Positions 4,914 through 12,548 of a stretch of DNA of 64,000 bases are shown here, piece after piece (the stretch's first letter is position 1; each line of letters opens with the position of its first letter). Source of the DNA: Candidatus Latescibacterota bacterium (GTDB taxonomy: Bacteria > Latescibacterota > UBA2968 > UBA8231); the NCBI GenBank assembly GCA_965197905.1, contig CBDAOB010000003.1, positions 416,001 to 480,000 on the forward strand, in the 5' to 3' direction. The notes under the pieces were generated by a model that ran no database searches, was not told the origin of the DNA, and saw nothing but the letters and a program-made list of their open reading frames with translations. The position numbers were made by a program, and so were the translations under genes.

Positions 4914-5981
4914 TCACTCTGAAGGTAGCCAACGATCCACATCCGCAACGGCAACTTCCTTTGTCTCACCCTCCAACCGTACCCGAGCGCCCACTTCATC
5001 GAGCTTGTAGATGGCCTGTTGCCAGAAACTGTCTGCGGTTCCCTCCTCGACTGCGTCGACGATGGCAACCAGAGCGTCCTCCAAGTAGCTTACGCCGTGG
5101 TGCTTGCCATATCGCTCGCGGACCTCGAACAGGCCGCGTAACACGCTGTCTCGATCCAATTGTGGTATACGGATGGGTGCGAAGCAGTCGACCAATCGTG
5201 GGTTCAATCTGCGACAATAGTCCATCTCGACGGTGACTCCGGTGAGCAACTGGAGGGTACCTTCCTCCAGAGCTGGCCGCAAAACTGATCCGTTCAAACT
5301 CTTCTCAAGGTCGACGAGATCTGCGAGACTGTGGAAATACAACAATACGTTGGCGATCGTTTTCGCCTCCTTCGCCATCGCGGTGACTCGCTCCTCCAAT
5401 TGCCCCCGGTATTTTACACCCGATTGGAGGCCGTCTATCGTCAGTAGGCGTCTGCTCGCGAGAGGTTCGGGAGCCGTCCCTGACGCAATATCCACCGCCA
5501 AAGCGTGTACTATGCCGCGTATCTCTGCGCTGTTGTCTCCGACGAGTACAACGCTGTTTCTATGGCGTCGGACCACCACGCAGGCGATTTCATCTATTAT
5601 CCGTTGACGGCCGGGAGCAGGGTCGAGCTCGTCGCGTCGCGCGTCGTCAACGAGGTCCCGCTGGAAGTAGTCGATAAATGGGGTCTCGCTTCTCTGTCCA
5701 GTCTGATCGTGGCGAGTGTCGGCGGGAACCGTTTCGAGAACGGTGTCCGCTCGCCCTTGGTCTTTAGCCGCCGAGGCGATGAGTTCTTGACCGATCTCTT
5801 CGGCTCGGCTGGGTTGCAGCAGACAAGCCCATGCCAGAATCGTCGAGTCGTTCGGGGGGTTGCGCCTGCCGCGCTCGATATCTGATAGGTAAGCTGGTGA
5901 GATGCGCTCATTCGAGATGTGGCTCAAATCGGAGGGGATCACAGGATACGAAACCCGGCACGAGTTCAGCCTCCCATCCAC
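4914..5981 (-). CDS. XRE-type HTH fused to degenerate ClpA/ClpB NBD1 AAA+ domain
   Basis: ISPAYLSDIERGRRNPP (XRE recognition helix); RDLVDDARRDELDP.PGR, RRHRNSVVLVG, SGVKYRGQLEERV, LRPALEEG, ERYGKHHGVSY, A...LDEVGARVRL match ClpB NBD1; Walker A and B are degenerate; start uncertain. Confidence 0.75.
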   Translation of the reverse strand: MDGRLNSCRVSYPVIPSDLSHISNERISPAYLSDIERGRRNPPNDSTILAWACLLQPSRAEEIGQELIASAAKDQGRADTVLETVPADTRHDQTGQRSETPFIDYFQRDLVDDARRDELDPAPGRQRIIDEIACVVVRRHRNSVVLVGDNSAEIRGIVHALAVDIASGTAPEPLASRRLLTIDGLQSGVKYRGQLEERVTAMAKEAKTIANVLLYFHSLADLVDLEKSLNGSVLRPALEEGTLQLLTGVTVEMDYCRRLNPRLVDCFAPIRIPQLDRDSVLRGLFEVRERYGKHHGVSYLEDALVAIVDAVEEGTADSFWQQAIYKLDEVGARVRLEGETKEVAVADVDRWLPSE

Positions 5982-6136: not shown

Positions 6137-6874
6137 TCACGCCTTCCCGCCCGTCAGAATCGACACCACCTGCGGGACAGCCTCCGCCACACTTTCATCG
6201 AATTCATCGCCTTCCACGGGTGCAGCGTACGCCCGCAGTTCGATACTCCTGTAGCCTGCAACGCCGTCAAAGGTGCTCGACCAGGCGCCGGCTCCGGCGG
6301 TCCTGACTCTGGACTCCAGCTCCTTTCGAGGATATTCCCATCGCAGCTCCCTGCCACCGTAGCGGACCGTGTCTCCCTCCTTCACCCCGCTCATCCGCAT
6401 CCTGCGGTGTACCCCGAAGTGGATCAGCCTTCGATGCACGCCGTCGGTCTGTTGACCGGAGTCCTCCCATCCTTCTACCAGATAGCTCCCCGTCAAATGC
6501 GACAGCCTGAACCCATCACCATCGCGTTCGATCATCGGAACCCTTCCAGCGGCCGTGATATAGGCGGTCGGGATGCCTCTCAACTCGAACTCCAGCATAT
6601 CGTGCAAACTGCACGAACTGGCGCCGCATCAGTCCACGACTCCCATCACAAGCCCATCGCACCGCGGAACGATCTCCTCCAGAAGCTTCTTCGAGCAGAC
6701 CCGGTAGGGAGATGACTTCCTCCACGGTCCGACCACATTCGCGTCATACTCTCCTCCGAGCCGTTCCCCTACCGCCTCGAGAACGGCTGCTGAAGTACGC
6801 TTTCCCGGATCCAGAAGTCCGATCCTGGCACTGCTCAAGCGGGTCAATCGGGATGCAGGTTCGATACCTGACAT
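6137..6874 (-). CDS. UGSC-family thioredoxin-like selenoprotein (245 aa, Sec at TGA 6629-6631)
   Basis: ORFs 6629..6874 and 6137..6607 are in the same frame; readthrough gives RIGLLDPGK...CDGLVMGVVD-U-CGASSCSLHDMLEFELRGIPT, aligning with the family pattern DUGSCTSCS.HD...E.RGIPT; AAGGAG RBS; SECIS-like hairpin follows the TGA. Confidence 0.75.
6600..6616 (-). promoter_or_regulatory. Putative bacterial SECIS element
   Basis: Minus strand TCGTGCA-GTT-TGCACGA: perfect 7-bp stem with a G-led loop 19 nt after the UGA. Confidence 0.65.
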
Positions 6875-7118
6875 AGCTCTGCTCCTTTCCTTGGAGTGTT
6901 CCGCGCGTCAGTGACAAATATTGGTGAATGATTCCACGATAGCGAGTCTTGAGACGGGTGCCGTCTATCGTAGTGAATAGTGCGCAGCGACAGTCCGTCC
7001 GGGTCCTCGGCCATACACGACAGCGCCGGAGTGAAACGAAATGGAGCAGACAGCGGCGTTGCAACAGAGCATCGCCGAGATGCACTAATATCAAGTGTGC
7101 TAAAGTATCTAAAGTGAT

Positions 7119-7988
7119 TTATGTCTGGGGACGCCCCGCATGCGCGGATTTGTGCTGGTGGTTCAGTTCCAAAGGCATACCTGCGGTAATATCGTTGCCC
7201 GATCCAGCAGTGACCGGCCAGGCCTGGCCGCCCTCGAATACAAAGTCTTCCCGGCCGCACAGCCACAGGAACAGACGCGCAACGCGGACGGAGTCGTGCC
7301 ATTTCTCGGGCATTTGGTGGCCGGTGCTGAAGTCGATCTTGGCGAAATCGCACTGCGGGTCGACAACCCAGTCGCGCCTGGGCGCGGCCGTGCGCCGGTA
7401 GTTGTATTTGAGCAGGTTGCGGATGCCGCTGGCCGTGGAGGGGGTAGCGCGATGCCAGATCGAGTAGTGGGTGATAAAGATCGAGCCGGCCGGCGCCACC
7501 GTCTGCACGGCCTGGCGAATGCTGCCGTATTGGGTCATGTACCGGCGCTTGACGCGAAGAAGGTGGGAACTGGGCAGGACCTCGGTAGGACCCAGCTCCG
7601 CGGGCGTATCCTGCGGGTAGTAGAAAACCTGTAGGCTGTCGAGCCGCGGCGAGTCGACAGCCCCGCCGTCGCGGTGCCAGCCGCCACTCATGGCGCGCGG
7701 GCACTGGACGCGGTGGTTGCCCATGATCATGGGTACTTTGAAGTCTTTGCCCAGGAGCGAGCGCACCGCCCCCGCTGCCTGCGGGTTCTTAATGACGTGG
7801 TCGACGAACCACTCCTCATCCAGGATTTCGATCGGCACTATCTCGGGATACCTGTCGACGAATTCCGTCGTGCGGCGGTTGACCTCGGCGGGGACCACGG
7901 CCTCGAGCATCATGAAGCCATTCTTGCAGAATTCAATCACTTGCTGGTCGGTCAGCGTCGGTTCACAATCGTATATTTCTCCCAACAT
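7119..7988 (-). CDS. Phytanoyl-CoA dioxygenase (PhyH) family Fe/2OG dioxygenase
   Basis: LTDQQVIEFCKNGF, WHRD, GPTEVLPSSH, AGSIFITHYSIWHR. Confidence 0.85.
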   Translation of the reverse strand: MLGEIYDCEPTLTDQQVIEFCKNGFMMLEAVVPAEVNRRTTEFVDRYPEIVPIEILDEEWFVDHVIKNPQAAGAVRSLLGKDFKVPMIMGNHRVQCPRAMSGGWHRDGGAVDSPRLDSLQVFYYPQDTPAELGPTEVLPSSHLLRVKRRYMTQYGSIRQAVQTVAPAGSIFITHYSIWHRATPSTASGIRNLLKYNYRRTAAPRRDWVVDPQCDFAKIDFSTGHQMPEKWHDSVRVARLFLWLCGREDFVFEGGQAWPVTAGSGNDITAGMPLELNHQHKSAHAGRPQT

Positions 7989-11720: not shown

Positions 11721-12548
11721 TCAATATCGCCTTTTCCAGCGCCAGCTGTCGCTGCCCGAGATGAGCGGCTTGATGTCTTCAGGCAAGGTTTCGATGAATT
11801 CAGGGCTGACCTCGTTCCTCGGCCACTCGCGGAGCATCGGTGGTGTATAGCCGGCGATTAGGATTGTACGTTCCGCATCGCTACGGATCGCAGTACTGCT
11901 GTGGAGGAGAGATTCCGTAAAAAGCAAGGTTGACCCGGCCATTGCTTCGACCTGATGAATCAACCTGTCATCCGCAAGCGCAGCATTAATCATCTCTTCA
12001 GCTGACCACGTCAGGCGATGTGAGCCTGGAATCACACACGTTCCACCGTCATCCGGACCGACGTCTGTCAGGTAGGATAACGTCTTGACGAAGATAGCGT
12101 GGAATTTGTTCTGCTCGATGTAGGTTCCCCAGCCGTGCTTGGTTCCTCTATGAAACTTGGTCGGATTATAGCGCCTCTTGTAAAGCTCATGGAGGGCCAG
12201 GACTGGATCCTTTCGGTTAATGATTGCCTCGGTTTCCTCCAGACGAACCTTACCGCCAACGACCTCCTCGACAAGCGGAACGAGCTTCCGGTGAGCGGCG
12301 TATTCCAAAAGTGCCGGGTCGTATTCGACGAGATTGCCCATCTTGGTATAATGATCGCTTCGGCTGGCATAGACTCGTTTGGATTCGAGATCTGGGTCAA
12401 CGCGGATCCGGTGGAGAGCGTCCTTCATCCGACCAACCTCGTCAGACGTCAAGGCGTTCTCTAGCAACACGTAACCGTAAATATCAAAGTGTAGGCGTTG
12501 TGCAGGTGTCAAACGGATGGTTTCGTTGTTATCCATTGATTTAGCCAA
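11721..12548 (-). CDS. PhyH-family Fe/2OG enzyme with HxG iron motif
   Basis: FDIYGYVLLENAL, FHRG, YLTDVGPDDGGTCVIPGSH, AGSTLLFTESLLH. Confidence 0.85.
   Translation of the reverse strand: MAKSMDNNETIRLTPAQRLHFDIYGYVLLENALTSDEVGRMKDALHRIRVDPDLESKRVYASRSDHYTKMGNLVEYDPALLEYAAHRKLVPLVEEVVGGKVRLEETEAIINRKDPVLALHELYKRRYNPTKFHRGTKHGWGTYIEQNKFHAIFVKTLSYLTDVGPDDGGTCVIPGSHRLTWSAEEMINAALADDRLIHQVEAMAGSTLLFTESLLHSSTAIRSDAERTILIAGYTPPMLREWPRNEVSPEFIETLPEDIKPLISGSDSWRWKRRY

Follow-up and report, generated by a model that had tools for sequence, protein, structure and literature searches.

A predicted UGSC-derived selenoprotein of Candidatus Latescibacterota with an Obg C-terminal-type domain inserted in its redox core

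In a 64,000-nucleotide stretch of a Candidatus Latescibacterota genome (hereafter the window), we found a gene for a 245-aa protein of the UGSC family that appears to carry the GTPase Obg's C-terminal domain (OCT, DUF1967) in the middle of its core. Read-through of the in-frame TGA at codon 82 as selenocysteine (Sec) is, judged from sequence, nearly certain, and the Sec call taken together with this architecture is very likely. The mechanism is much less certain than the architecture and the Sec call. We see roughly an even chance that the gene encodes a stand-alone, laterally transferred, UGSC-derived selenoprotein with an OCT domain in a flavodoxin-like core, in which Sec would carry out redox chemistry, Cys83 would act as the resolving residue and the OCT domain would serve for docking.

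The gene lies on the minus strand, which the earlier sequence-only reading of this DNA had left unstated. Two ORFs in the same frame of that strand, 6629-6874 (81 aa) and 6137-6607 (156 aa), become one reading frame of 245 aa when TGA is translated as U, with a single internal TGA (6631-6629, codon 82) in the motif VVD-U-CGASSCSLHD. Database gene calls split the locus into pieces of 81 aa and ~153 aa, and the close database matches (30/30) are pieces of 138-196 aa that cover the downstream part only. Relatives gave full-length matches to the 245-aa protein, each with one TGA. From 47 full-length loci we drew 22 distinct genes, with the window gene included and truncated loci dropped, and all 22 have an AGGAG, GGGAG or AGGA site 5′ of the start codon. 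The features of the window gene are as follows.

6137 to 6874, minus strand: whole gene, predicted 245-aa UGSC-OCT selenoprotein (ATG 6874-6872, stop TGA 6139-6137, internal TGA read as U).
6882 to 6888, minus strand: Shine-Dalgarno-like AAAGGAG, 7 nt 5′ of the ATG, from sequence.
6542 to 6874, minus strand: first part of the UGSC core (residues 1-111), which comprises four strands and three helices from a flavodoxin-like alpha/beta domain (PF24696 match at residues 5-108, structure model and fold search).
6629 to 6631, minus strand: predicted Sec82, an in-frame TGA at the start of the helix that follows strand 74-80 (TGA in 22/22 distinct genes and in the distant loci L098 and L099; helix 83-98 in the model).
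6626 to 6628, minus strand: Cys83, vicinal to Sec and lineage-specific (TGC in 19 and TGT in 2 of 21 genes; also in paralog L024 and in the relative P0033).
6592 to 6621, minus strand: predicted bacterial SECIS overlapping codons S87-C88-S89-L90-H91 (from folding, with 6616-6600 as the upper stem, a GUU loop, and CCAGU/GCUGG as the lower stem).
6332 to 6541, minus strand: inserted OCT/DUF1967 domain, residues 112-181 (profile and HMM matches; dN/dS 0.18).
6266 to 6331, minus strand: linker, residues 182-203, which returns into the core (alignments; length differs among sub-clades; dN/dS 0.34).
6140 to 6265, minus strand: last strand and C-terminal helix of the UGSC core, residues 204-245 (canonical UGSC rows align here with their C-terminal ends; the model has a strand at 210-213 and a helix at 223-241).

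The core of the protein resembles the UGSC family (PF24696, NF041046), with a Pfam score of 81 bits against a cut-off of 25, and shares with it the Sec position, the D..H-D..E.RG[IV]P frame, and the upper stem and spacing of the SECIS. The motif D-U-C-G-A-S-S-C-S-L-H-D, together with the TGA at codon 82, was present in all 22 distinct genes. A tRNA-Sec was found in the genome, and selA, selB and selD scored above curated cut-offs, so that the complete set selA/selB/selC/selD, for which the sequence-only reading had proposed to look, is present; selA was likewise found in 5/5 other carrier genomes tested. The suspicion of a hidden UGSC-family selenoprotein is thus sustained by the PF24696 match, the TGA in 22/22 genes and the Sec machinery. 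Conservation of the TGA taken alone is weak evidence because the true stop is also TGA in 20/21 genes, and an argument for Sec from stop-codon swapping was dropped on that same account.

According to the Fig. 2 legend of PMC13188914, a bacterial SECIS has a loop of 3-9 nt, an upper stem of 4-16 bp, a G in the first two loop positions and a distance of 16-37 nt from the UGA. The hairpin TCGTGCA-GTT-TGCACGA at 6616-6600 has a 3-nt GUU loop, a 7-bp upper stem and a spacing of 19 nt. The sequence-only reading had set this hairpin 19 nt downstream of the TGA; the hairpin itself is there, but 19 nt is the distance from the TGA to the loop G, and the stem begins 12 nt past the TGA. The 44 nt that follow the TGA fold at -18.5 kcal/mol (z -2.47), a value equalled by 2 of 200 shuffles, while longer spans are less distinct (62 nt, z -1.80; 82 nt, z -0.67). 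An upper stem like that of the window gene was also seen in L098, L099, L007 and L009.

To describe selection, we used 21 ungapped genes with 82-99% nucleotide identity, paralog L024 being dropped; since they are such close kin, the 22 genes do not count as independent evidence. The overall dN/dS was 0.18. By region it was 0.135 ahead of the TGA and 0 for codons 83-96, then 0.18 across the insert and 0.30-0.34 for the linker and the C-terminal part; across all segments outside the motif it ranged from 0.04 to 0.34, and inside the motif it was zero. By these ratios both halves around the TGA are under purifying selection. Codons 87-91, which form the upper stem, use one codon each in 21/21 genes, compared with 30 of the 120 other amino-acid-invariant columns, and two of the invariant stem codons are minority choices, AGT accounting for 10% of Ser and TTG for 17% of Leu. 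This synonymous constraint, together with the geometry of the hairpin, agrees with the proposal that a SECIS lies just 3′ of the UGA.

If the TGA were instead a true stop, the locus would be two small genes or a decaying gene, as the 81-aa and ~153-aa database calls and the internally deleted mini-forms in which the N-terminus is joined to the C-terminus (L008, P0229, P0048, P0050) might suggest. We regard this as very improbable indeed, given that the break falls at the Sec site of the family, uninterrupted homologs exist, the two halves form one fold in the model and show the dN/dS values above, and a SECIS and Sec machinery are present. Other irregular copies were also seen among the relatives: a partial 3′ duplicate (L028:11940-12223) lies 6 kb from an intact copy, and genome G052 holds three full-length copies, one only 68% identical.

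Further predicted selenoproteins were noted in the host genome. L043 (G000:C4:218170-218643, plus strand) would be a second UGSC-type selenoprotein, with G-H-U-S-T-C-A-P and a SECIS-like hairpin. L056 (G000:C4:606994-607911, plus strand) is selD with an in-frame TGA (C-G-U-A-A-K) and a hairpin, from which it appears that the SelD of this genome is itself a selenoprotein. In one related genus, loci L009-L021 are canonical UGSC selenoprotein genes, several of them followed by an ORF that, by eye, resembles methionine sulfoxide reductase B.

The protein departs from the UGSC family in several respects: it reads U-C-G-A and has no UxxC, an 81-aa insert interrupts its core, and its NF041046 score is 59.6 against an equivalog cut-off of 125. 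In addition, the partner domain 'Unknown_1' that accompanies some UGSC proteins (PMC2398784 Fig. S1A), and that is not OCT, is neither fused to nor near the window gene. The long C-terminal domain of L043 resembles this partner by eye. Because U, C+6, H and D stand in the same register as in canonical UGSC selenoproteins of relatives, the changes of +3 Cys to Ala and of +1 Gly to Cys are real, and the earlier remark that the +3 Cys is lost while a Cys stands beside Sec is correct.

We then placed these changes in the wider family. A search of 1.84 billion representatives gave distant proteins of the same architecture that are 25-45% identical to the window protein. In a core-only tree (55 rows and 102 columns, few columns for that many rows; unrooted; canonical rows limited to those that the query matched), the 19 insert-bearing rows fell on one side of a branch with support 99/95. 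The insert-bearing proteins therefore probably share one origin and constitute a wider UGSC-OCT clade, in line with the distinct subfamily that had been proposed. In the 12 distant full-length members, three of which come from one cluster and all of which were seen as protein, so that some C may be Sec, Cys occurs at position 0 in 12, at +1 in 1, at +3 in 1 and at +6 in 6. In the 36 canonical UGSC rows it occurs at +1 in 0, at +3 in 33 and at +6 in 12. Two distant metagenome loci (L098 and L099) read D-U-G-H-G-S-A/S-C with TGA and the upper stem mentioned above; a metagenome scan with A7 gave two 1.3-kb contigs, and one with P0041 alone gave no match. Position 0 is C or U wherever it was seen in the clade, which answers the proposed homolog check at the TGA site, and only this Sec/Cys is invariant. 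Loss of the +3 Cys thus appears to mark nearly the whole OCT clade.

The vicinal Cys is distributed differently. It was found in the 22 Latescibacterota-type genes and in 1/12 distant full-length proteins, namely the nearest relative P0033 (D-C-C-A-C-S-A-C), whose grouping with the window sub-lineage had support 94/79 and was not starred. It seems confined to this sub-lineage and P0033, and Cys83 is not required for the function of the clade since most of the clade lacks it. As for the +6 Cys (C88), the TGC that encodes it is paired within the upper stem of the SECIS, and the stem also encodes H91. Both residues are lost in several presumed Cys forms, so it may be the RNA that preserves them, which leaves the +6 Cys a weak candidate for a resolving residue. 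The subfamily using "a vicinal Se-S pair or the +6 Cys" that the sequence-only reading had suggested can accordingly be kept for the vicinal Cys within the sub-lineage, but not as a clade-wide feature, and hardly for the +6 Cys.

These patterns also bear on a simpler scheme, that of a single-Sec enzyme in which Cys83 is a bystander and either an external thiol or Cys88 recycles Sec82, as would have to be the case in most of the clade. The +1 Cys is absent from 11/12 distant full-length members and from both distant Sec loci, and several distant members have the position-0 Cys only, as this scheme would have it. On the other hand, Cys83 persists through a synonymous TGC/TGT change and is present too in a paralog (68% identical) and a relative (45% identical), and the SECIS pairing can account for Cys88. 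On balance we think a single-Sec enzyme possible but unlikely, and favor Cys83 as the partner of Sec82.

A similarity to GrdB/PrdB (PF07355, UxxCxxC) was also found, with TUGSCNRC...ELAREGI aligned to DUCGASSC...EFELRGI, but it is marginal (HH probability 55%, E 1.2e-4, 39 columns, one GrdB sequence). The window protein gave no PF07355 match at E up to 1, has no UxxC and is much shorter, and no grd or prd neighbours were found near the gene. A GRDB search gave no match in the host genome and matches in 4/168 genomes of the phylum. Two genomes of the same family (G154, G159) each hold a GrdB-family selenoprotein (L100, L101) with T-U-G-S-C-N-R-C and a strong hairpin, and two other genomes have shorter PF07355 matches.

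We next turn to the insert. From GIPT to residue 241 the window protein has 138 residues; the corresponding stretch in 33 canonical UGSC rows has 56-60, with a median of 57, which gives a net insert of 81 residues. The large insertion seen after GIPT in the sequence-only reading is real, but its size had been put slightly too high, at roughly 90-100 residues. According to the alignment, the insert replaces the helix that comes after the GIPT strand. For the window protein alone the domain matches are below threshold: Pfam DUF1967 at residues 146-179 with E 4.7e-4 and 20.6 bits (cut-off 27), and NCBIfam TIGR03595, the Obg C-terminal extension, with E 0.001 and a score of 18.9 (cut-off 37.65). 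A profile of 29 insert-bearing proteins matched, at positions 112-178, residues 344-411 of Thermus thermophilus Obg (1UDX) with E 8.3e-5, the sole PDB match at E <0.01. The tail of an Obg from a cluster named Chloroflexota ObgE (P0123) matched the same 29-protein profile with an HH probability of 96% and E 4e-9. DUF1967 was matched by 20/29 family members at E up to 0.05 (best 4e-12), and an HMM built from the insert only found Obg tails at ~1e-13 and, in the host genome, the window gene only. Atlas feature matches to DUF1967 clusters, at 0.85, are taken only as a lead.

From the 1UDX, P0123, DUF1967 and insert-HMM matches, residues 112-181 are, at the level of sequence homology, the OCT/DUF1967 domain of the Obg C-terminus, and a linker comes after it. 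The expected added domain is thus not merely present but recognisable. It shares ~70 homologous residues with the OCT domain of Obg (DUF1967/PF09269, TIGR03595, 1UDX 344-411), including a hairpin, two helices, G-V-x-x-x-L-R-x-x-G-x-x-x-G-D-x-V and terminal strands. Unlike the OCT domain of Obg, which ends a GTPase, the insert sits inside a redox core, and neither Pfam nor NCBIfam gave an Obg fold or G domain in the 245-aa protein. Conserved across the family is the insert motif G-x-H-R-x-x-R-x-x-G-x-x-x-G-D, and G154, H156, R157, R160, G167, D168 and W179 are kept in 34-37 of 37 rows. Within the conserved His-Arg, H156 (34/37 rows) is replaced by Glu in both aligned Obg tails (1UDX, P0123). 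No longer proteins containing the insert were found among 110 candidates, which is weak evidence.

The structure was predicted by AlphaFold with a 73-row alignment (pLDDT 93.9, pTM 0.90); the single-sequence model reached a pLDDT of only 31.8. In the 73-row model the insert forms its own folded unit, made of a hairpin, three short helices and two strands; strand 74-80 precedes Sec82 and helix 83-98 follows it. The best fold match was 8S7V_H, a chain of the methyl-coenzyme M reductase activation complex (Z 11.0, rmsd 3.2, 129 aligned), below which stood many generic flavodoxin-like rows at Z 8-10; no thioredoxin-fold protein was named in the top 50 fold matches. The model shows the core as a flavodoxin-like alpha/beta domain rather than a thioredoxin fold, whereas UGSC had been guessed to be Trx-like in PMC2398784. 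In whole-model fold searches, core matches filled the lists, and 1UDX was not among the matches listed.

The same fold match can be turned toward another function, in which U82, C83, C88 and H91 ligate a soft metal or cluster and the OCT domain passes it on to a target. Adjacent Sec and Cys are shared with the CU selenoproteins SaoL, SaoB, SaoC, HgcA, MbdU and KCU-star and with the GxUC 2Fe-2S-binding form 1 in Table 1 of PMC13188914, and among these adjacent CU/UC families SaoL, HgcA, MbdU and the 2Fe-2S-binding proteins speak for metal binding, as does 8S7V_H at the top of the fold matches. Yet these families are unrelated to the window protein and nearly all C-U, while the window protein is U-C; 8S7V_H stands only ~1 Z above the generic flavodoxin-like rows; C88 and H91 are encoded within the SECIS stem, and several presumed Cys forms have lost both residues; and no metal-handling neighbours recur. 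We therefore hold metal transfer to be improbable, and keep to a redox role for Sec82 and Cys83.

Within the phylum, which is reported to include sponge-associated members (PMC12993501), the insert form was found in 22/168 genomes (two copies cut by contig ends). In 22 other genomes only the N-terminal core was found, and those translated are canonical UGSC selenoproteins. Relatives from titled MAGs were assigned to Candidatus Latescibacterota (11/16), Gemmatimonadota (4) and uncultured bacterium (1). When the identity of the gene was compared with that of Obg, the gene was the closer of the two in 5/6 genome comparisons: 95.5% versus 59% for G069, of another class, and 88% versus 56% for G052, compared with 91% versus 95% for G002, of the same genus. 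This excess indicates that the gene moves laterally, with a mis-assigned contig being possible in G069.

The neighbourhood of the gene agrees with a stand-alone unit. In comparisons of the window with 16/16 loci, the common stretch was the gene plus at most ~165 bp upstream, and no recurring operon partner and no linkage to obg were found in these 16 loci. Local synteny, involving two genes that by eye look dioxygenase-like and glyoxalase-like, was found in one close-relative group only. The downstream gene (4914-5981, minus strand) encodes a 355-aa protein with an HTH and a single ClpA/ClpB-like AAA module, and is absent from related loci; upstream are two PhyH-family dioxygenase genes (7119-7988 and 11721-12548, both minus strand), and similar but non-orthologous genes occur near other copies. 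Searches of plasmids and viral contigs gave no match to the gene, and those for an Rfam family, a promoter or a terminator gave none either. In two RNA runs with small word shares, a single short contig per run fell on the gene (245 bp in one, 267 bp in the other), which does not show transcription.

Given the OCT-type insert, we examined the Obg of the host. It is encoded on another contig, has 333 aa and stops after the G domain, without an OCT domain. The same holds for 30/30 Obg frames parsed in the phylum (30 of 31 loci), all of 320-335 aa, and DUF1967 scored above cut-off in 0/168 genomes of the phylum compared with 6/14 control genomes. The insert thus occurs in a phylum whose own Obg has no OCT, and with no DUF1967 above cut-off in 168 genomes and a short Obg in every frame parsed, the OCT domain most likely came, on these sequence data, from a lineage whose Obg has one.

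It could be imagined that the OCT domain binds the same target as in Obg, so that the selenoenzyme would be recruited to the Obg GTPase or to the 50S subunit and act there as a redox regulator of ribosome assembly or the stress response. In T. thermophilus crystals the OCT is reported to touch the nucleotide site of a neighbouring Obg (PMC9545696), and in Bacillus subtilis mutating the OCT of Obg is reported to weaken both its association with ribosomes and the stress response (PMC5765353, which cites Kuo 2008). The short host Obg fits as well, and so does the insert as the sole OCT-like sequence found in the genome. Against this, only 22/168 genomes carry the gene and yet none has an OCT above cut-off, so the gene does not complement a needed function; the His156 that is Glu in the two Obg tails suggests a new specificity; and the gene is not linked to obg. 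A complex prediction of host Obg with the OCT part scored 0.00 twice, with controls that did not fold, and so speaks neither for nor against binding. Docking of the Obg type is quite improbable in our view. If true, with the domain captured from an Obg of another phylum, it would put ribosome assembly or the stringent response under a redox switch that is mobile, depends on selenium and uses a U-C pair in this lineage.

Taking a redox enzyme with a docking domain as the preferred reading, the following course may be proposed. SelB would read the hairpin and Sec82 would be inserted, a step for which the support is strong. Sec82, placed at a helix start as in GrdB's UxxCxxC site (PMC13188914, section 7), would then be the nucleophile that attacks an oxidised or electrophilic target. 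As the clade is without the +3 resolving Cys, in the window sub-lineage Cys83 most likely resolves or protects Sec through a vicinal Se-S pair, and other clade members would need an outside thiol. The OCT domain would probably dock the target through its conserved basic H-R-x-x-R face; docking is suggested because the domain replaces a core helix and because the partner domain of some canonical UGSC proteins is absent.

With respect to existing descriptions, the protein descends from UGSC, but its motif is not UxxC, its core exceeds the family's length and its NCBIfam score falls below the cut-off; nor is there an NCBIfam model for the fusion. The accessible text of a 2026 catalogue of 119 prokaryotic families (PMC13188914) has no such entry and no 'obg' or 'DUF1967', and names UGSC once in a table. 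Literature searches of titles and abstract starts, whose coverage mostly leaves out subscription papers, returned no description of a UGSC-OCT fusion. The architecture is nonetheless latent in databases, where two proteins bear both Pfam labels and one has been auto-named 'Obg family GTPase CgtA-like protein'.

Taken as such, the gene would represent a selenoprotein subfamily whose domain architecture is new and whose members standard annotation breaks up into pairs of hypothetical proteins, and it would place an OCT domain outside Obg. What an OCT domain binds becomes a testable question here, because a small soluble protein with an OCT domain beside a reactive Sec/Cys allows partner trapping. 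The clade offers a natural motif series (UGSC, CCAC, UCGA, UGHG, single-Cys) in which the Sec site is kept without UxxC, and it illustrates how a Cys that looks conserved can owe this to a constraint on the RNA, here the SECIS. Finally, the model would place UGSC in the flavodoxin-like fold instead of the thioredoxin-like one suggested earlier.
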